From the NCBI GenBank assembly GCA_965112155.1, contig OZ218101.1: a stretch of 64,000 bases of DNA. One strand, given 5' to 3'. This document shows positions 6,773 to 64,000 of the stretch, piece by piece. A program made the position numbers and the translations under genes. Every line of letters starts with the position of its first letter. Positions within the stretch are counted from its first letter, which is position 1. The notes below the pieces were generated by a model. It made no database searches and had not been told where the DNA came from. It was given only the letters and a program-made list of their open reading frames with translations. The DNA comes from Podarcis liolepis. Taxonomy: Eukaryota.

Positions 6773-6908
6773 CAGTGGTGGCCAAACTCAGCTCTTCAGC
6801 TATTTTGGGACTACATTTCCCATCATCCCTGGCCACTGGTCTTGTTAGCTAGGGAGGATGGGAGTTGTAGTCCCAAAACAGCTGGAGGGCTGAGTTTGGC
6901 CACCACTG
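6773..6908. mobile_element. hAT-type MITE, same body as 14768-14902
   Basis: TIRs cagtggtggccaaact / agtttggccaccactg, flanked by catattc on both sides. Further decayed copies at ~16100-16225, ~27150-27250, ~44700-44800 and ~63645-63752. Confidence 0.85.
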
Positions 6909-13639: not shown

Positions 13640-14490
13640 TTGCACGTCGAGGTCCCCAAGACACCCCCCCCCAAAGAAAAACACAATTGACACTTAATTT
13701 TTGTTTAAGGTTTTTGGCATAATTTTGGCCACAACTTTATTCAAATTACAGCAATGTGATTGGTTGCTTAGGCATTGGTAGCACTAACTGACCCTGCACG
13801 GGGACAGCTCTGACATTCGCACCCCCTGCAAAGTCAGCAAAGGTAAGTCACATGGGAGAGAGACAGGACTGGGAACCATGCCTCACCTCTCCCCAGAATG
13901 CTCCCAGGGGCTTGTGTGGCCCTAGCCCCTTGCCAGGGGGTTTCAGATAAAAGCATGAGGACCCCCTGGGTTCCTTTAATGGAAAACCCTTGAAGCAGCA
14001 GCAGCAGCATTTTGGAGGGGCAGGCACAGCCGAATTCATACCCCTCCACCGACCAATTCCAAGACCAATGCCTAACCGCAAACCTTACAAGTTGTGACAA
14101 TTTGCTACGCAGTAGGCAAAAACCAGGTGGCACACACTAATCAGCCAAATGGACAAAATTCCTACCAGGCCCCTGCCCCAAAGCAGACGACCCCATGACA
14201 GGCATAGCAAGGTCAAGCAAACAGCCTAAAATTAGGGAAGGGTGATCCGAAGTAAGCAGTGAAAAGAGGAAGTTCCTCGCTGCGAGCATTGTATTTAACA
14301 AATAGGGCTGTCAATCAACAAATGACAACATCTAGATTTCCCCAGTAACAGCCCGTCCCTGCTTAAAGGATGGCCAAACCATTTGCCTAGTAACAGTGAG
14401 GTGTCTTGTCAGCCCCGCCCGCAACCTGTGCTCTCCATGAGGGAGAACACACTTTACCTGCGCTCTCCATGAGGGACAACACGCTTTAAA
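13640..14490 (-). mobile_element. Unclassified ~0.85 kb LTR-like (possibly Ngaro/DIRS-order) solo repeat, copy A
   Basis: Reverse complement aligns with 17060-17881 (e.g. ccttgctatgcctgtc, ggtaggaattttg, aataaagttgtggccaaaat). Poly(A) signal near the 3' end, imperfect short inverted termini, no coding capacity. Confidence 0.7.
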
Positions 14491-14767: not shown

Positions 14768-14902
14768 CAGGCATCCCTAACCTGCATCCCTCCAGATGTT
14801 TTGGCCTACAGCTCCCATGATCCCTAGCTAACAGGACCAGTGGTCAGGGATGATGGGCATTATAGTCCAAAACATCTGGAGGGCCGAAGGTTGGGGATGC
14901 TG
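14768..14902. mobile_element. hAT-type MITE (~135 bp, quasi-palindromic)
   Basis: TIRs caggcatccc / ggggatgctg. Perfect 8-bp TSD ctttaagc at 14760-14767 and 14903-14910. Confidence 0.9.
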
Positions 14903-17059: not shown

Positions 17060-17881
17060 TACATGTTGGGTCCTCCATCATGGAGGGCACGTGTTGCAGT
17101 GAGATCACCAGAAACTGCCTCCCTGTTGTGGGACGGGACCTTTTGAATGGCCACAATGCCCCATTGATTGCCCCTCTGTTGCTGGGGCAGAAATTTGGTC
17201 AGTTGGGTTGGCTATTGGCTCCTGAGGGGCTACTTAAGCTGCTGCATGTCACTGGAGAGTTTCACTTTTGCGACGTGCAGTGGATCACCCACCCTCCTCT
17301 CCCTATATTTAGGGTTGTTCTTATGGCCTTGCTATGCCTGTCTAGGGGTCGTCTGTTTTGGAGCAGGGGCCCGGTAGGAATTTTGCCATTTGGCTGATTG
17401 GTTGGTGCCACTTGGTTTTTGCCTACCGTGTAACAAATCGTCACAACTTTGTAAGGTTAGCGGTTAGGTATTTGGTTCAATGTTTTGGGGAGGGGATGTG
17501 GTTGGCTGTGCCTGCCCCTCCATTACTGCTGCTAGAGAATTCTGTTAAAGGAATCTAGGGGCTTGCCTTGCTTTTCTCCAAACCCTGTCAAGGGGTTAAG
17601 GCCACACCAGAGCCCCTGGGAGTATCTGGGGTGAGCTGTGAGATCAAAGGAGTTCTCGCTCCCCCAGGATGCTTTCCCTTACTGACATATGGTGGTGCCC
17701 AGTGTCAGTCCTGTTCCTGCCACCATGCTGGTTCAGGTAGTCTGGAACCAAGGCCTAAGTAACCACTCACATGCTGTAATGAATAAAGTTGTGGCCAAAA
17801 TTTAATGCCAAAAACCTTAAACTAAAATCTGTGTCTATTGTGTCTTTACTCGGGGGTGGTTTTGGGGAGTTTTCACACACA
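17060..17881 (+). mobile_element. Unclassified ~0.82 kb LTR-like (possibly Ngaro/DIRS-order) solo repeat, copy B
   Basis: Homologous to 13640-14490 in the opposite orientation. AATAAA at ~17782. No clear TSD. Confidence 0.7.
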
Positions 17882-18729
17882 ATTGTTAGTTGCTTATACA
17901 AAAAAGGTCTCAAAGTGACTTAACAAGATAAGTTGCTTGCATGCAGATGAAATAGTAGGACAAAAGATTATTTGCTTCATTTCTTATGTACTGGTTACAC
18001 AGCATTTAAAGGAGAGGAGGTGAAAGCTGAAAATTCTGTGCAAAGACATTCTTGTTATTGAAGTTAGAATTTGTATAGGGCTGTAAAAGCTTTCCTTCCC
18101 CGCCTCCAAAGAAAGAAGCCAAAATTATTGGGGGGCTGAAGGAACTCCACTGTTAGGAAAAGTTTGGGGCATTTTAGTTCAGAAAGATCTGAACTTAATA
18201 GACATTTCGAAAATGTTCCAGGGTATGATGAAATTGGAGAGCTTTTCTCCCTCTCTGATAACACTAGAATCTGGAGTCCCCCAATGCATCTGAATGGTTA
18301 GAAATTCAAGAGAGACAAAAGCATATAGTGCACACAATGCATGGCCAAACTTAAAGATTCACTACCAGGAGAAGGGACGGCCACTATCTTATAGAACTCT
18401 ATATGGGGATTAGAGTAATGTATGAAGGTTTTGGCTGCCAAGAGGTACTAGTTATTATGGCTATATGAAACCTGTCAGATCCTGAATGTCAGTCACTGGG
18501 AAACAAAAGGAGGAGGGGGCTATGACTTGTAGGCTTCCCATTGGTCTGTCGCTATGAGATAAAGGATATGGAACTAGATAGACTTGACCCCCCCCCATCC
18601 CACCCGGATTTTTCAATGTGTTCATATAGGGAAGTGTCATTTGTGGACAAGATCCCATGTATATACAAAGTTACAGTACAGAAAAAAGATGAAAGACTAG
18701 TTTCCAATGAATTGTGTAGATTCACATAA

Positions 18730-46582: not shown

Positions 46583-47648
46583 TATTGTGAAACAGTTTAT
46601 TAGTACAACAATACCAAAGTGACCCTTCAGGCTTCGCCACATCTGCTGTTCCTGCTATCTACAGAGCCTGGCAGAAAATTATACACATCTCTAAATGCTA
46701 CTGTTGGAATATGCACTTCAGAAGAAAAAGAGAGAGAGAAAGCCTGAGCGCATCTGGATCGTACAGCTGGCAAGCAAATTGTGGATAGTTGAAGGGTGGC
46801 GAGAAAGAAATTGACCATTAGAAACAAAATTAGATCATAAAGGTTATATAAAAATTAAACATATGTCACTGTGTATTCAAATTAATCAGCTGGATGAAAG
46901 GAGGGAAATTACAGACCAAAGGCCCACTTTAAAACTCATTAAGACCAATAGAAAGATCTCCATTTGCTTCAAGTATGATTTATTTTGTCCATCTTCAGTG
47001 GATGCTGTTGATACAATAATGTGCACTAGCAATATGAGCATATCATATCATTAGCTATAAAGCAAGTCTTGAGGCTGTTATCTAGGGGAAAATAGGACAG
47101 GCATCTGAAATCTCTGTGACATCTGTTGAAATCCCCCTTTTTGAAAGTTTCAATTAAAGTGAAAACCTCACATTAGACACGAAATCTCACTAGAACAATT
47201 GCAGGCGTCACATCTTCCTGCCAATGGTACACATGGGACACAACAGCAAATTTGGGTTCCTCTCTGTGGTTACAAGAGGGCTTTGCTCCTCTTGCATTCC
47301 CTTGCCATTGCTGAAGCGTGAAGGCAGTCAGGCCTGACCCACCCATGCATCAAAAGGAGGCGAGGATGAATCCATAGGTGGTAGAATGAACATGATGGAA
47401 GCTGCTCTCAGATCCTCTTTGTGGGCTTCCCAAAGGCATCTGGTTGGCAACTGTGAGAACAGAAAGCTGGATTAGATGGGCCACAAGCTTGATCCAACAG
47501 GCTCTTTTTATATTCTTATGACGATACCCATCCACATTAACAATGGAATATGGTAGTGATAGATAACAATAGGGGAAGTGACCGAAGTGCTTTGATCTTT
47601 AACACTACTTCCTATGTATCTACTCAAAGGCAAATCTAATTGAATTCA

Positions 47649-47841
47649 AAATAAAAAAATTCCTTCCTGTAGCACCTTAAAGACCAACTAAGTTAGTTCT
47701 TGGTATAAGCTTTCGTGTGCATGCACACTTCTTCAGATACATGCACACGAAAGCTTATACCAAGAACTAACTTAGTTGGTCTTTAAGGTGCTACAGGAAG
47801 GAATTTTTTTATTTTGACTATGGCAGACCAACACGGCTACC
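47649..47841. mobile_element. Penelope-like element remnant (inverted pseudo-LTR arrangement)
   Basis: Perfect 78-bp inverted arms at 47646-47723 and 47740-47817, followed by an unpaired tail (gactatggcagaccaacacggctac). Direct repeat ctaattgaattca at 47636-47648 and 47842-47854. Confidence 0.85.
47703..47740 (-). ncRNA. Minimal type I hammerhead ribozyme motif of the Penelope type
   Basis: Minus strand reads GUAU-CUGAAGA-A-GUGUGC-AU-GCACAC-GAAA-GC-UU-AUAC: CUGANGA and GAAA core boxes, stem II, palindromic AGCU mini stem III, 4-bp stem I. Confidence 0.7.
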
Positions 47842-51150: not shown

Positions 51151-54100
51151 TTAAAGTTCATATAACTTATAAAACTTTTGCAAATAGTCCTTAAATTTTT
51201 TCCAATCCTCCTCCATTGCTTCTTCTCCCAAGTCTCGGATCCTGGCAGTCATCTCGGCCAACTCCATGTAGTTCATCAATTGCGTCTGCCAGTCTTCCAG
51301 TGTGGGTAAATCTTGAGTCTTCCAATACTTAGCGATAAGAATTCTTGCTGCTGTGGTAGCATACATAAAAAACGTTCTATCCTTCTTTAACACCTTTTGG
51401 CCGACAATGCCCAAAAGGAAGGCCTCTGGTTTCTTAGGAAAGGTGTACTTAAACACCTTTTTTAACTCATTATAAATCATTTCCCAGAAGGCCTTCACTC
51501 TTGGACAGGTCCACCAAAGATGAAAGAATGTCCCTTCAGCCTCCCTGCATTTCCAACATTTATTATCAGACAGATGGTAAATCTTAGCAAGCTTGACTGG
51601 GGTCATGTACCACCTGTATACCATTTTCATAATGTTTTCTTTCAAGGCACTACATGCCGTAAACTTCATACCGGTGGTCCATAACCTTTCCCAGTCCTCA
51701 GACATGATATTATAGCCAATGTCTTGAGCCCATTTTATCATGGCTGATTTAACTGTCTCATCCTGAGTATTCCATTTAAGCAGCAAGTTATACATTCTCG
51801 ATAATACCTTGGTCTTTGGTTCTAACAACTCTGTCTCAAGTTTCGATTTTTCCACCTGGAATCCTGTTTTTTTATCCTGTTTAAAAACCTCATTGATTTG
51901 GGCATAGTGAAACCAATCTTGCACCTTACCTTTTAGTTTTTCGAAACTCTGCAACCTCCAATTATCTCCGATATTTTCTATTATTTCCCAATATTTCGGC
52001 CAGCCGGCTTCCATATTGGGTTTTTTCCGAGCCTTGGCCTCTATTGGTGATAGCCACCTCGGAGTCTTACTTTCCAATAAGTCTTTGTATTTTTTCCAGA
52101 CCAAAAATATTGCTTTTCTGACAATATGGTTTTTGAACATTCCAAATGTTTTTGCCTTGTCATACCACAAATACGCATGCCAACCTAACGAGTTGTTAAA
52201 GCCCTCCAGATCTAGGACATCAGTGTTTTCTAACAGAATCCAATCTTTCATCCAGCAGAAGGCGGCAGCTTCATAATATAACCTTAAGTCCGGCAGGGCA
52301 AACCCCCCTCTTTCTTTTGCATCGGTTAATATTTTAAATTTTATTCGGGGCTTTTTGCCCTGCCAAACAAATTTCGAGATATCCTTCTGCCACTTTCCAA
52401 AACATTCCACTCTGTCCACGATCTGCAAGGCTAGAAACAAAAACAACATCTTTGGCAAAACGTTCATTTTTATAGCTGCGATTCGGCCTAACAAGGATAA
52501 TTTCAATCTTGACCAGATTTCTAGATCTTTTTTAACTTCTGACCAACATTTCTCATAGTTATCTTTAAACAAGTTCAAATTTTTAGAAGACAAGTTAACC
52601 CCCAGGTATTTCACTTTTTTAACAATGTTTAAGTCTGTTACCTTCTGGAACCCATCTGTTTCAGAAGATGTCAAATTTTCCCCTAGTACCTTGGTTTTTT
52701 GTTTATTTAACTTAAATCCCGCCACCCGACCAAATTCTTGAATCAATTCTAGAACTCTTTTTGTACTAGATTCTGGCTCCTGTAGTGTTAAAACCAAATC
52801 ATCTGCAAATGCTTTCAGTTTATATTGTTTCGTTCCGACCCGTATCCCCTGTACCTGCCGATCCTTCCTAATCATATTCAGCAACACCTCCAGGACCGAG
52901 ATAAATAATAGAGGGGATAGGGGGCACCCCTGTCGTGTTCCTTTTTCAATATGAAACTCTTCTGTCACCACATTGTTCACTATCAACTTGGCCTTTTGTT
53001 GTGAATAAATTGCTTCTATTCCATTCTCAAACCCCCGTCCCACTCCCATCCCTTCCAAATTTCTCTTCATAAACTTCCAAGAAATATTGTCAAAGGCCTT
53101 CTCTGCATCTATAAAGATCAGCACAGCTTTGGTGTTAATATTTGTTTGAAGCAGTTCCAAAATGTCAATAATGTTCCTGGTATTATCAAACAAATGCCTG
53201 CCTGGGAGAAAGCCTGCTTGGTCCTTATGGATTACTTCATTTAGTACTTTTTTAAATCTATTTGCCAAAATGTCTGCAAATATTTTATAATCCACATTCA
53301 GGAGTGAGATGGGACGGTAGTTCTTAAGTTGAGTCTTTTCAGTTTCCACTTTAGGAATCAATGTGATGAATGCTTCTTTCCACGTTTCTGGTGCCCTCCC
53401 TCCCCCCATAATCTGGTTGCAAACCTCCATTAATGGTTGTATCAAGTAGTCTTTTAATGTCCTATAATACTTGGAGGTAAGTCCATCAGGGCCTGGAGAT
53501 TTGCCTAGTTGCATATTCTGAATGGCATCCTCAATTTCCTGTTGTGTTATTTTACAGTTCAAGATTGATCTCTTTTCTTGAGATAGTTCTGGTAGGCCAT
53601 TATCTTTTAGAAATTGTTCTATTTCAGTCGCTTCCTCAGGGCCTTGGGTATAAAGTTTTTTGAAATATTTCTGGAAACACTTTCTAATTTCTCCCGGTTT
53701 CTGGATGTTTTTCCCTTCAACTTCTAAGTTGGTAACATAATTTAATTTTTGTCTCTTTTTCAACTGCCAAGCTAGCAGTTTCCCACATTTGTTTGCAGAC
53801 TCAAAAGATCTTTGTTTCATTTGTTTAATTTTCCATTCCACTTCTTGGTTTATCAATTTCGTATATTGTGACTGGTGGAATTTAATTTCTCTTAAAGTCT
53901 CTTTGGATTTTGGATTCAATCTTAATTTTTTCTCTCCGTCTCTTATCTTCTCTAATATCTTATCCTTTTTTCCATTCCAAAGTTTTTTCTTGATCGTATT
54001 CTGTTGTATCAGAAACCCTCTCATAACAGCTTTACTTGCGTCCCAGATTATTCTTTTTTCCACCGAGGTATTCAAGTTTATTTCAAAGTAGTCCTTTAAA

Positions 54101-54891
54101 GCTTTTTGGGTCTTCCTTACAATCTCTTGATCTCTTAACAGGGTGTCATTCATTCTCCATCTGAAGGAATCGGCTGGAGTAAGTCTCACTTCCATTTTCA
54201 AAGCATTATGGTCGGAACAGGTCTTTGGGCAGATTTCCACTCTTATAGTCTTAGGTGCCAGCCCTCTAGTTGTCCAAATTTGGTCGATTCTTGTCCATGA
54301 TAGATGGGCCTCAGAAAAGAAAGTTCCTTCTTTACCTAAGGGGTTTCTTGTCCTCCAGATATCGATCAGATCCATATTGTCAGTTAGTTCAAAAAAAGTT
54401 TTTGGTAGTCTACCATCTTTAGTTAAGTTCTGGTTCTGTGACTTATCCATGTAGGTAGAGACCACCCCATTCATGTCTCCCATCATAATGATGTTGGAAT
54501 AATCCAGATAGTCCAGTAGTATCTCATGCAGCTTCTTGTAAAATTCTGATTTCCCCTCATTTGGTGCGTAGATTCCTAATATCAGGATTTTTTCTCCTTG
54601 GGTTTGTATTTCAATTGCCAAAATTCTTCCTTGTTCATCTTTGAACAAAAATTTCGGTGCTAGGTTCTCCTTTGCGTAAATTACCACACCTCTCTTTTTA
54701 ACTCTGTCTGATGAAATAAATTCTTGGCCTAGTCTTTTGTTAATTAAAACTTTCCTATGGAGCCTAGTCACATGGGTTTCTTGCAAGCAAATTATATCCA
54801 GATGTTCTTTTTTGAGAATATGAAAAATCCTTTTGCGTTTTTCCGGGGAATTTGCGCCGTTAATGTTCCAACTGTATAGCTGCAGAGACAT
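51151..54891 (-). CDS. L1 ORF2p: APE endonuclease, reverse transcriptase, C-terminal cysteine-rich knuckle (1246 aa)
   Basis: APE motifs SWNING, LQETH, GDMN, RIDQIW, SDHN. RT motifs SPGPDG, YRPISLLNVDYKI, DAEKAFD, GTRQGCPLSP, FADD, KYLG. C-terminal CWKC-x8-HLWWTC. No internal stops. Confidence 0.97.
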   Translation of the reverse strand: MSLQLYSWNINGANSPEKRKRIFHILKKEHLDIICLQETHVTRLHRKVLINKRLGQEFISSDRVKKRGVVIYAKENLAPKFLFKDEQGRILAIEIQTQGEKILILGIYAPNEGKSEFYKKLHEILLDYLDYSNIIMMGDMNGVVSTYMDKSQNQNLTKDGRLPKTFFELTDNMDLIDIWRTRNPLGKEGTFFSEAHLSWTRIDQIWTTRGLAPKTIRVEICPKTCSDHNALKMEVRLTPADSFRWRMNDTLLRDQEIVRKTQKALKDYFEINLNTSVEKRIIWDASKAVMRGFLIQQNTIKKKLWNGKKDKILEKIRDGEKKLRLNPKSKETLREIKFHQSQYTKLINQEVEWKIKQMKQRSFESANKCGKLLAWQLKKRQKLNYVTNLEVEGKNIQKPGEIRKCFQKYFKKLYTQGPEEATEIEQFLKDNGLPELSQEKRSILNCKITQQEIEDAIQNMQLGKSPGPDGLTSKYYRTLKDYLIQPLMEVCNQIMGGGRAPETWKEAFITLIPKVETEKTQLKNYRPISLLNVDYKIFADILANRFKKVLNEVIHKDQAGFLPGRHLFDNTRNIIDILELLQTNINTKAVLIFIDAEKAFDNISWKFMKRNLEGMGVGRGFENGIEAIYSQQKAKLIVNNVVTEEFHIEKGTRQGCPLSPLLFISVLEVLLNMIRKDRQVQGIRVGTKQYKLKAFADDLVLTLQEPESSTKRVLELIQEFGRVAGFKLNKQKTKVLGENLTSSETDGFQKVTDLNIVKKVKYLGVNLSSKNLNLFKDNYEKCWSEVKKDLEIWSRLKLSLLGRIAAIKMNVLPKMLFLFLALQIVDRVECFGKWQKDISKFVWQGKKPRIKFKILTDAKERGGFALPDLRLYYEAAAFCWMKDWILLENTDVLDLEGFNNSLGWHAYLWYDKAKTFGMFKNHIVRKAIFLVWKKYKDLLESKTPRWLSPIEAKARKKPNMEAGWPKYWEIIENIGDNWRLQSFEKLKGKVQDWFHYAQINEVFKQDKKTGFQVEKSKLETELLEPKTKVLSRMYNLLLKWNTQDETVKSAMIKWAQDIGYNIMSEDWERLWTTGMKFTACSALKENIMKMVYRWYMTPVKLAKIYHLSDNKCWKCREAEGTFFHLWWTCPRVKAFWEMIYNELKKVFKYTFPKKPEAFLLGIVGQKVLKKDRTFFMYATTAARILIAKYWKTQDLPTLEDWQTQLMNYMELAEMTARIRDLGEEAMEEDWKKFKDYLQKFYKLYEL

Positions 54892-54915
54892 CCTGTATCA
54901 ATCTGTTGTTGCTTT

Positions 54916-55962
54916 TTATGGGGTATCTTCTTTCTTGTCCAAATCCGAGGGTGCTGGTTCTTTCCCTGGTTGTGGTGGAGGCCAGGAAACTGCTGTTCCC
55001 TTCTGTAGGTCCTCTCCGTGGTCGTGTAGGAACTTCTGGCTATCCTCTCTCGTTTTGATTTTAACCTTCTTTTCTTTGTAGTTAAATGATAGACCTTGTG
55101 GAAACTCCCACCTGTACGGTATCCCGTTGCTTCGCAGAAGTCCAGCTAGGTCAGTGTAGTTGGCTCTGAGGTCCAATAATTGTTTAGGGATATCCTTGTA
55201 GATCTCTGCTCTTTTGTCCTGGATCTCAAGTGATTTATTAAAATGAAGGTCTAGAATTTCGTCTCTCTCCTGTTTGGTCCTTAAAATAATCAAACAGTCT
55301 CTGGGCCTGTCCTTCCTGGCGACTCTTCCCAATCTGAACGCAGTTGTTATTTTAAAATCTTTGTCTTCGTTTATACCCCAGAATTTAGAAAATTCTGACG
55401 TCAGATAGCCGATCAAGTCTCCTTTCTCAAGCTCCGGGATAGAGCGTAATCTTAAATTATTTTCTCGATTCCTCAATTCCACCATAGACAGATAGGCCTG
55501 CTGGTCACTAATATGCTTGTGAAGTGGCCTTACCTCTCCTTTCAATTCGTCCACTTTCTGAATTGCTTGGTCAGCTTTCTCATTTGCAGCCTCAGCCAAT
55601 TTCCGGTTCTCAGAAGTGGCGTCTTTTAAGTTCCCAATTGTTTGTGAATGCTGAGCCACTTGTTCAGATAGTTTAGTAATTGAGGATGTGGCTAAATCAT
55701 TTTTTGCTGTTTGGTCGTCAACCTTCTTATTTAAAATTGCAAATTGCTGTAACATTTCATTTAGAAGGGTGCCAGATCCCCCTGCTGCCATATCCTCAGT
55801 TGTTGGCTGTTCAGCTTCCTTGGATGGAGCTGTTGTTGAAGGTACAGCTCCCTGTAGGACAGCAGGGACTGAAGATCTGCGAGACTGGGAAGTCAGAGTT
55901 GTTTGTACAAGTTGGCCTTTCCCTGCTTTCGTCGCAGCTCTTGTTTTTGGATGGCCACTCAT
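54916..55962 (-). CDS. L1 ORF1p nucleic-acid chaperone (coiled coil, RRM, CTD; 348 aa)
   Basis: Ends 24 nt upstream of ORF2. Heptad-rich region, then RNRENNLRLRSIPE (cf. L1 RxxNLRxxGIPE), RPRDCLIIL, IYKDIP and YRWEFP, resembling L1 ORF1p RRM/CTD motifs. Confidence 0.92.
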   Translation of the reverse strand: MSGHPKTRAATKAGKGQLVQTTLTSQSRRSSVPAVLQGAVPSTTAPSKEAEQPTTEDMAAGGSGTLLNEMLQQFAILNKKVDDQTAKNDLATSSITKLSEQVAQHSQTIGNLKDATSENRKLAEAANEKADQAIQKVDELKGEVRPLHKHISDQQAYLSMVELRNRENNLRLRSIPELEKGDLIGYLTSEFSKFWGINEDKDFKITTAFRLGRVARKDRPRDCLIILRTKQERDEILDLHFNKSLEIQDKRAEIYKDIPKQLLDLRANYTDLAGLLRSNGIPYRWEFPQGLSFNYKEKKVKIKTREDSQKFLHDHGEDLQKGTAVSWPPPQPGKEPAPSDLDKKEDTP

Positions 55963-56549
55963 ACCACAGCTGTCTATGAGTCAAGGTCAAGCTGTCAAAT
56001 ATTCCATGGGAAAGACAGACTCCAGAGTAGATAACACACCAGTAGAGAGTCAAAACAAAGTTGGTTCCCAGGGATTTGTAAATCCAAAGCTCCACTAGGT
56101 GGAGTGTTGTTACAGTTCAGAAAGAAAAGAAGAAAGTTTGGGTCGCCATTAAAGTTCCAGCAGACCATAAGATTAACCAAAGTCCTTAAAACTTTTCCAC
56201 TTGCAGAGCCCTTTCAAAACTGCCACATAAGTCTCATCTGAGGGTGCAAGATACAGTTGCTCAATTGTATCATCCAATATAGCCTCTAAATATCTATTTC
56301 ACTTTTATAATTTGTATCCGCAAGCAGCCCTTTTCCCCTGCCAGCCCGAGGCTGAGTTTTAAAAGTTTTGAAGTCCACCAGAGGAGAAGGTTTCCAAATT
56401 GTATTAGCACATTAGCATAGATAAAATACAGAAAACTTGCCTTTCCTTTCAATTGCTAGGTCCTCCAGACGCATGCTTCCCAATTTAAAGTCCCTTTCTG
56501 TTGCTTCCAGCCTGTCAGTTCCTTTGTCTTTGATCTCTAAACACTGCCG

Positions 56550-63023: not shown

Positions 63024-64000
63024 TCACATAAACATAGAAGTTCACTTTTTGTTTTCTTCAACCCAATTTCAATTTATTCTAGAAATAGAATTTGTTTGTG
63101 TAACTGATTAACCAGGATCAAATTAGGTCAGCCTGTGTTGACACAGTATGGAACTGTAATTGGTTTCTTTAATTGGTAACTGTAAACTTGAATGTAATCA
63201 GCTCAGAGGAAGTACAGTCTGTACCAGAAAAGTCTCGTATCTCCCAGGGGAAACTTTGCTTATTGTAAACTGCACAAGTGATTAAAATTCTATATCAGTT
63301 ATTGTATGGCCAAGAAGTGCCTTCTGTAGAGTCAGCTATACAGAAGAGATCCCACCCACCCCAATCCTTATAGTAGTTCCTCAGCATGGAAACAAACAAG
63401 ACATTTCAGAAATAAATAAACTTTGCCTCTTCTTGGGGGCTGTTTGTGATTTATATGACCAAGAATCTCATGGTTGGCACATTCCCACTAAATATGAATT
63501 CATTTGGCAACATTAATGATTATTTGGTGTGTTTGGTAAAAATATGAATATATTTTATGCCACCCATTCTTTTTTATGATTATTTTATTGTCTTGTAATT
63601 TTATTATTACTGCTTCTATGAAAAGGTAAGTGGACTTTCAGAGAGATATTTTGGACTACAATTCCCATCATCCCTGACCACTGGTCCTGTTAGCTATGGA
63701 TCATGGGAGTTGTAGGCCAAGAAATCTGGAGGGCCGCAGATTGGGGATGCCTGCTCTATGCCAACCAACCTGATCGGTAGTGATCTGTGGCTGTGAGCAC
63801 CCAACTCTTTTGAGACCTGTGGCGATCACACAGGGTCCCCGGATGTTTTGAGATATTTGAAGTTTATAGCCTACCAACATATCTTGGAAAAAGATACTAG
63901 TGGTGAGAGATTCAAGAGACAAAACGAATTAGTATTTCATGCAGCTTATTGTTAAACTGTAGAAGATAAGGCTATTGATTCTCGGAAGATAAGGCTCTCT

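Follow-up and report, generated by a model that had tools for sequence, protein, structure and literature searches.

A hairpin with a two-sided U-rich loop, a candidate poly(A) clamp, in the spacer of Ngaro retrotransposons of Podarcis liolepis

The window analysed here, a stretch of 64,000 nucleotides from Podarcis liolepis (contig OZ218101.1 of assembly GCA_965112155.1), holds two copies of a repeat on opposite strands, both of which are, judging by their sequence, solo A-C-B ends (~815 bp) of Ngaro retrotransposons, from two different subfamilies. Their parts, including the hairpin with which this work is concerned, are as follows.

17063..17882 (+): copy B, a Ngaro solo end (A-C-B) whose 2-nt core is AT on the left and AA on the right
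17065..17287 (+): repeat A of copy B, the putative promoter part, with a 5' hairpin at its start
17231-17238 (+): TATA-like 8-mer in repeat A, aligning with TATA-like words of intact elements
17288..17457 (+): spacer C of copy B, a unique segment of full elements, flanked there by A2 and B2
17329..17336 (+): 5' strand of helix P1, which pairs with 17429-17436 and would close a three-way junction; one pair is broken here
17346..17371 (+): neighbour hairpin H1, abutting the U-loop hairpin, with two-sided change in 3/6 pairs
17372..17428 (+): U-loop hairpin of copy B
17372-17378/17422-17428 (+): lower stem of the U-loop hairpin
17381-17384 and 17416-17420 (+): 5' and 3' U runs of the U-loop hairpin
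17386-17394/17407-17415 (+): upper stem of the U-loop hairpin
17440..17447 (+): near-invariant 8-mer with which C ends, predicted to form a long-range helix with the complementary 17788-17795
17458..17880 (+): repeat B of copy B
17464-17475 (+): 5' strand in repeat B, complementary to 17748-17758, which would close a B domain
17782..17787 (+): AATAAA poly(A) signal, followed by an invariant 8-mer at 17788-17795
17808..17810 (+): CCA, a candidate cleavage site, with a GT-rich tract beyond it at 17830-17847
13640..14455 (-): copy A, a solo end (A-C-B) from another, younger subfamily
14456-14480 (-): short duplication of the 5' hairpin of copy A
14081..14242 (-): spacer C of copy A
14168-14193, 14111-14166 and 14091-14098 (-): H1, U-loop hairpin and 8-mer in spacer C of copy A
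13736..13741 (-): poly(A) signal AATAAA in copy A

The rest of the window contains an apparently intact LINE (51151-55980, minus strand), in which a 354-aa frame precedes one of 1,248 aa that has endonuclease and RT domains, and a perfect 78-bp inverted repeat with a 16-nt spacer (47646-47817). A short palindromic MITE-like repeat (14768-14900, 6773-6908 and 63644-63753) is abundant in RNA reads of both strands, and has weak matches to miRNA families in Rfam, below the cut-off.

Both hairpins quoted in the initial annotation are present, at 17372-17428 on the plus strand in copy B and at 14111-14166 on the minus strand in copy A. That of copy B folds as had been claimed, with two helices around a 6/5 loop (-22.7 kcal/mol, z = -4.1, equalled by 0/200 shuffles); the same fold is predicted for copy A, but weakly (z = -1.7, 15/200 shuffles equally good). 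A generic scan of both strands of the 64-kb window found an architecture of two helices around a loop with at least three U on each strand only at these two hairpins, compared with a mean of 0.18 matches per window, and a maximum of 2, when 100 dinucleotide shuffles were scanned in the same way. Between 13500 and 18000, Rfam returned 13 matches at E values up to 10, none of them over either hairpin and none at the gathering score. HDV-like and hammerhead ribozymes were discarded as candidates, with none found by Rfam, and neither a core nor suitable partner strands found by eye. The AATAAA downstream of the copy B hairpin (17782-17787) is 354 nt away, the distance having been given as ~355. 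The copies had also been said to share the hairpin despite divergence elsewhere, and it is indeed kept, but so are the whole of 17325-17475 and the region of the poly(A) signal.

The host repeat is, by the order of its repeats and frames, a Ngaro tyrosine-recombinase retrotransposon with the plan A1-ORFs-B1-A2-C-B2. Searching the genome with the tyrosine-recombinase family returned 29 loci; 3' of the recombinase, the unit appears in split form, with its second half first. Both repeat pairs are present at 18 of the 29 loci, 98-100% identical within 10-kb stretches. Of the other 11, six extend no further than B1, one lacks B2 through a deletion, one is interrupted by satellite, and three are different elements. 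A1 is ~215 bp and B1 ~435 bp in length, and the unique spacer C between A2 and B2 is ~165 bp. These repeats are 68-92% identical to those of the window, with a further locus, L290, being closer to copy A. The ORFs encode, in order, a reverse transcriptase (RVT_1, 3/3), a recombinase (Phage_integrase, 2/2) and a hydrolase (Lipase_GDSL_2, 3/3, below the curated cut-off), preceded by a first ORF of ~520 aa for which 0/2 had a Pfam match. Split direct repeats, RT, tyrosine recombinase and SGNH hydrolase constitute the Ngaro plan in the available text of 10.1101/2021.08.05.455354. Four young Ngaros (L100, L108, L110 and L290) lie inside a 185-bp satellite on small contigs, L110 having an extra tandem B-A-C unit. 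In one subfamily (L106, L111, L114 and L116), where A2 begins, AATAAA forms the loop of repeat A's 5' hairpin, ~110 nt past the B1 signal.

Solo ends are numerous: the ~815-bp unit has more than 3,000 candidates in the genome, with 40 scored per search, and 58 further copies have nothing in common beyond the limits of the unit. A two-base core, mostly AA, borders the solos on both sides (left 35/43, right 40/43) and recurs at the B1-A2 junction, and a 4-6 bp target-site duplication was found in 0/43 solos. The initial annotation had called the repeat LTR-like, a label that must be abandoned for that of a Ngaro solo end, with an LTR retrotransposon or ERV LTR being excluded by the lack of TG..CA and of a 4-6 bp duplication, the tyrosine recombinase, and the split repeats. 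Helentron-type rolling-circle elements have a TT target, and their non-autonomous units are tied to Rep/helicase elements; that identity was rejected, as the present unit is tied to RT-recombinase elements. For a 15-mer at the poly(A) signal, the genome contains 8,222 exact matches, against 2 for a control, and among 91 such sites (the first 100 listed, minus the last seven and the B1/B2 pair of one known element), 73 follow a C spacer, two follow the hydrolase ORF, and 16 follow neither. The end-to-start junction had 0 matches in the family of copy B; in that of copy A, exact 5' ends numbered 100, whereas the single junction match belonged to a sister subfamily, leaving the family itself with none. 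Six loci (L090, L091, L094, L109, L113 and L118) consist of A-ORFs-B without A2-C-B2, with unrelated flanks in the five checked. Loci of this form and the solos make up the two halves of the full element. They could be separated through genomic recombination or, as an idea, by the recombinase cutting a circular intermediate at both of its junctions. Cafeteria Ngaros are also known to leave solo AB units, according to the available text of PMC8547959.

The U-loop hairpin sits in spacer C, and hence occurs once per full element, ahead of B2; the hairpin and the 8-mer following it were absent upstream of B1 in 15/15 elements inspected. As it is confined to the unique C, a full element has a single hairpin, placed before the second of two identical poly(A) signals. 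Conservation was assessed in 136 units from 40 clusters, with a median identity of 56% between cluster medoids, which were gathered by sequence patterns, such that more distant families may be missed. Five rows were dropped (four with C partly replaced by other DNA, and one duplicate) and large clusters thinned, giving 88 rows from 36 families, with the C region aligned for 74. The motif was found at the C site in 105 of the 136 units, and in 0 on the opposite strand. The best-kept stretches were 17376-17395, 17416-17455 and 17776-17795, at 0.83-0.91 versus ~0.55 for most of A and B, the value for the last being inflated by part of the sample having been selected by that stretch.

Support for the individual helices is uneven. 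RNAalifold called the lower stem and H1, and missed the upper stem, which is misaligned in the L101-type families, where it is entirely different in sequence. The proposed structure has 93.7% of cells paired, versus 31-52% in slid registers. Two-sided changes affect five of the seven lower-stem pairs and three of the six H1 pairs, although the number of such pairs does not exceed that in shuffles (79/500). On the internal branches of the tree, the lower stem underwent four two-sided and two one-sided changes that kept pairing, and none that broke it, making it rank 1 of 11,476 six-pair registers by such changes. The corresponding two-sided, one-sided and broken values were 3, 5.6 and 0.4 for H1, 0, 2 and 7 for the upper stem, and 0, 5 and 4 for P1. 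Hence the upper stem has zero two-sided changes across the aligned families, and P1, though paired in 93% of cells, likewise has none. The check for covariation proposed in the initial annotation, carried out with our own R-scape-like G-test, gave no significant pair, the best being a lower-stem pair ranked 1 of 13,203 (E = 6.6); nevertheless, the excess conservation or covariation whose lack was to count against the hairpin is seen for the lower stem, and for the U positions at the core of the loop. We judge H1 and the lower stem to be under selection as RNA helices, with few independent events behind this pattern. In L101-type families, spacer C also has a duplicated branch-point/polypyrimidine/AG-like word ahead of helix P1.

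DIRS elements make antisense cDNA, according to the available text of PMC7192593. G-U pairs outnumber A-C pairs in the lower stem (23 vs 3), H1 (126 vs 2) and P1 (56 vs 6), and this excess indicates that the fold belongs to the sense RNA, rather than to antisense cDNA. When 41 units were folded from about the start site to the CCA, the lower stem was predicted at P>0.5 in 32, the upper stem in 31 (two of the misses being parsing errors), and P1 in 15. These models suggest that the hairpin forms in the sense RNA beside H1. Our model R1 had no match in 41 distant relatives from metagenome contigs (30-62% RT identity), most of them contigs without C; a looser generic scan of 80 such loci in the same range of identity, again mostly on contigs without C, gave three matches, none with a real upper stem.

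The window copies have runs of U4 and U5, and all 41 folded units have U3-6 on the 5' strand and U3-7 on the 3' strand, with predicted median unpaired probabilities of 0.96 and 0.86, respectively. All 14 intact elements parsed have RR-stem GG, A(A/G), U3-5, CC..GG, U3-7, (C)G, CC, and four young ones (L096, L101, L107 and L117) have only U3 on the 5' strand, with runs down to 3/3. One lineage, of at least 46 copies, has an interrupted run, with 46 exact copies of UUCU versus 531 with UUUY; of 12 sampled, 10 cluster together and nine have only UUU on the 3' strand, giving a lineage loop of UUCU/UUU(U). Across families, U runs range from 2 to 7, their lengths varying freely with a weak correlation between the strands (rho 0.36, p 0.045, 32 families), as would be expected if an A strand slides along them. 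The five central U columns changed 0.4 times each on internal branches, versus 4.2-5.3 in other loops, although these columns were chosen after the fact, and all ten U-run columns average 2.3 against ~4.6 in other loops. The apical and H1 loops change about twice as often as the U-run columns. The non-U bases of the loop (its first A and last G), like the words on either side, vary no more than the U's do, a pattern suggestive of a specific motif or of a site for a protein, and the smallest loop to have spread is compatible only with A-G, A-U and two U-U pairs. Hence the window copies and the families with long loops look like ENEs in our analysis, and the smallest family barely does.

Downstream of the hairpin are AATAAA, a CCA at +20-23 and a GT-rich tract, where the RNA reads have no ends; in 38 of 41 units, a CC(A/U) ends 20-23 nt past the hexamer, within a search limited to +14 to +28. 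The putative promoter, with its TATA-like word in A, and the poly(A) elements in B are presumably used, going by their sequence. The last 8-mer of C could pair, by complementarity, with the 8 nt that follow AATAAA, ~340 nt away, and there is no covariation in this long-range helix because both strands are near-invariant. It has P>0.5 in 29 of 41 short transcripts; with longer context, it is the best partner of the C-end 8-mer in four of 14 elements, local hairpins or other partners winning in the remaining 10, yet it is the only partner common to all families in the rows compared. In six of seven distant metagenome loci inspected, the same five pairs instead form a local hairpin immediately 3' of the hexamer, with a W-rich linker and then CCA beyond it, which suggests that this is an old feature of the 3' end. 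Seven distant Ngaros (L213, L214, L220, L237, L240, L243 and L248) have in common a stem-loop whose U run is on one side only, ~80 nt upstream of the hexamer in B1, and a 5-bp hairpin directly downstream of that hexamer. A MALAT1-like genomic A partner was considered and rejected: in the window's families, A runs after AATAAA complement both arms of the loop, but these are not kept in most others. As there is no conserved genomic A tract, poly(A) is the only A-rich partner shared by all.

Expression was surveyed in four raw-read runs carrying the same species label, in which reads of both strands covered C and B to depths of up to ~25, and the ORFs to depths of 0-4. No shared read starts or ends were found in the four runs, nor poly(A) among the loose ends listed. 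This pattern fits copies carried along within transcripts of the host, and is compatible with the element having RNA of its own or having none.

Our main reading, to which we give a probability of roughly 0.5, is that the C hairpin is a short, single-domain, ENE-like clamp that grips the poly(A) tail of RNAs terminating in B2. The hairpin would bind the element's own tail in U-A-U triples and slow its deadenylation, and the predicted 8-bp helix that joins the last part of C to the 8 nt following AAUAAA would place the new tail no further than about two short linkers from the lower stem. Its position implies that, in full-length RNA, the clamp would be near the tail only in molecules that read through B1 and end in B2, the copying template; short RNAs started in A2 or a solo would also carry it, and RNA ended at B1 would be without it. 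The ENE proposed in the initial annotation is therefore borne out in part. The fold, the conservation over multiple families, the sense polarity and the place upstream of the last poly(A) signal all fit, but the upper stem lacks two-sided change, the R-scape-like test found no significant pair, and spreading lineages have U runs of 2-3. As in ENEs, the loop is U-rich on both strands, except in the UUCU/UUU(U) lineage (46 exact copies), and the flanking helices have G-C pairs beside the loop, which are counted for the clamp because such pairs are essential for the Evade ENE in the available text of PMC12501189. A double ENE (dENE) was rejected, there being one U loop only, with a second internal loop that is 2x2 and variable.

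The alternative functions exclude neither one another nor the clamp. The unvarying non-U bases, and a smallest loop limited to A-G, A-U and U-U pairs, would be natural if the C domain were a replication signal, in which RT or Gag of the element recognises an A-G/U-U loop and three-way junction during packaging, priming, or a template switch rebuilding the ends from the B1-A2 junction, with no need for poly(A) binding. C adjoins A2, where a split-repeat element presumably must start or switch copying, and the primer of DIRS-type elements is described as unsettled, with a 3' hairpin once proposed, in the available text of PMC7192593. However, U runs of 2-7 between families would be unusual for a fixed protein site, and a fold of the sense RNA is not a cDNA structure like the ICR; we regard this function as possible, but unlikely. 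The duplication of the poly(A) signal invites a different explanation, in which the C domain chooses between the two identical sites, with the U loop as an upstream enhancer, or the long-range helix as a gate, at B2. The sites are predicted to fold differently: at B1, 14/14 elements have the last part of the hydrolase ORF paired, at -18 to -26 kcal/mol, to the strand just upstream of the hexamer, through complementary strands of 11-14 nt that are family-specific and compensatory (L099:7125-7160 and equivalents), whereas at B2 the end of C pairs at -8 to -13 kcal/mol in 13/14. Elements with these B1 strands also have a small covarying hairpin directly 5' of B1. The 8-mer after AAUAAA is also predicted to be more paired at B2 (median unpaired 0.17, versus 0.40 at B1). 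Yet accessibility of the hexamer itself barely differs (0.53 at B1, 0.45 at B2), the reads carry no evidence on site use, and such a choice accounts for the long-range helices better than for a two-sided U loop, leaving it improbable.

The hairpin may also be no more than a scaffold helix of a folded 3' domain, with its U-rich loop an inherited composition that binds nothing. The families share descent, and hence few independent events lie behind their conservation; added to this, the R-scape-like test was not significant, and the UUCU lineage was able to spread. Against such inertness, both strands of the loop remain rich in pyrimidines and unpaired even though the neighbouring stems change, and the apical and H1 loops accumulate changes about twice as fast, making this the least probable of the explanations considered. 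A combination of functions is only a little less probable than site choice: spacer C would be a control module, whose U loop both clamps the tail of read-through RNA and supplies the RT with a primer or switch point, the RNA 3' end held on the U template just downstream of A2 priming reverse transcription. Were this so, every solo would keep a promoter, clamp and poly(A) signal, amounting to thousands of portable, stabilised 3' ends.

An ENE in a vertebrate tyrosine-recombinase retrotransposon would widen a known range that consists mainly of viruses and plant and fungal transposons. Dozens of natural variants, with U runs of 2-7, would then constitute a test of how few triples suffice, and the place of the hairpin offers a testable answer to how two identical poly(A) signals might be handled unequally. 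Spacer C is also a site at which to probe for the primer of DIRS-order elements, and thousands of solos with the whole module could hand host genes new 3' ends. Transposon ENEs have been described in plants, fungi, a slime mould and stickleback retroviruses in the available texts of PMC7583470 and PMC13541005; we found no literature report of an ENE, or such a fold, in Ngaro or tyrosine-recombinase elements, though the tables of Tycowski 2016 may list one.

Among known elements, the host most resembles the hydrolase-bearing vertebrate Ngaros, such as DIRS-53_XT of Xenopus, which has A1..B1 A2 B2 repeats and the same three ORFs in the available text of 10.1101/2021.08.05.455354, and it shares with the Cafeteria Ngaros of PMC8547959, as far as described there, a recombination that leaves solo AB units. 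Unlike the descriptions in the available parts of these two sources, the lizard elements have a unique ~165-bp spacer C with a conserved RNA fold, and they are dominated by their solos (73/91 sampled sites after C, and two after the hydrolase ORF). The hairpin itself is similar to the single-domain ENE of KSHV PAN RNA (PMC7583470) in its succession of stem, two-sided U loop and stem, in the G-C pairs adjoining this loop, and in preceding a poly(A) signal. However, the KSHV ENE makes five triples and three A-minor contacts (PMC7583470), whereas the U runs here are of 3-7, down to 2-3, with the purines A(A/G) and G between the lower stem and the U runs, and a predicted three-way junction. The MALAT1/MEN-beta triple helix (PMC7583470) also has a two-sided U-rich loop between helices, but the lizard hairpin has neither a conserved genomic A-rich tract nor a C-G interruption, and precedes a normal poly(A) signal, rather than a tRNA-like cut site. 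As with the Evade/Copia93 ENE of Arabidopsis in the available text of PMC12501189, the segment occurs once per element, outside the ORFs and near the 3' end of a retroelement RNA. By contrast, it has a single domain, unlike the plant and fungal double ENEs of PMC7583470 and PMC13541005 as far as their available texts go, and its host is a tyrosine-recombinase element, a class absent from the available parts of those reviews. The arrangement differs as well, in that only one of two identical poly(A) sites is provided with the candidate ENE.
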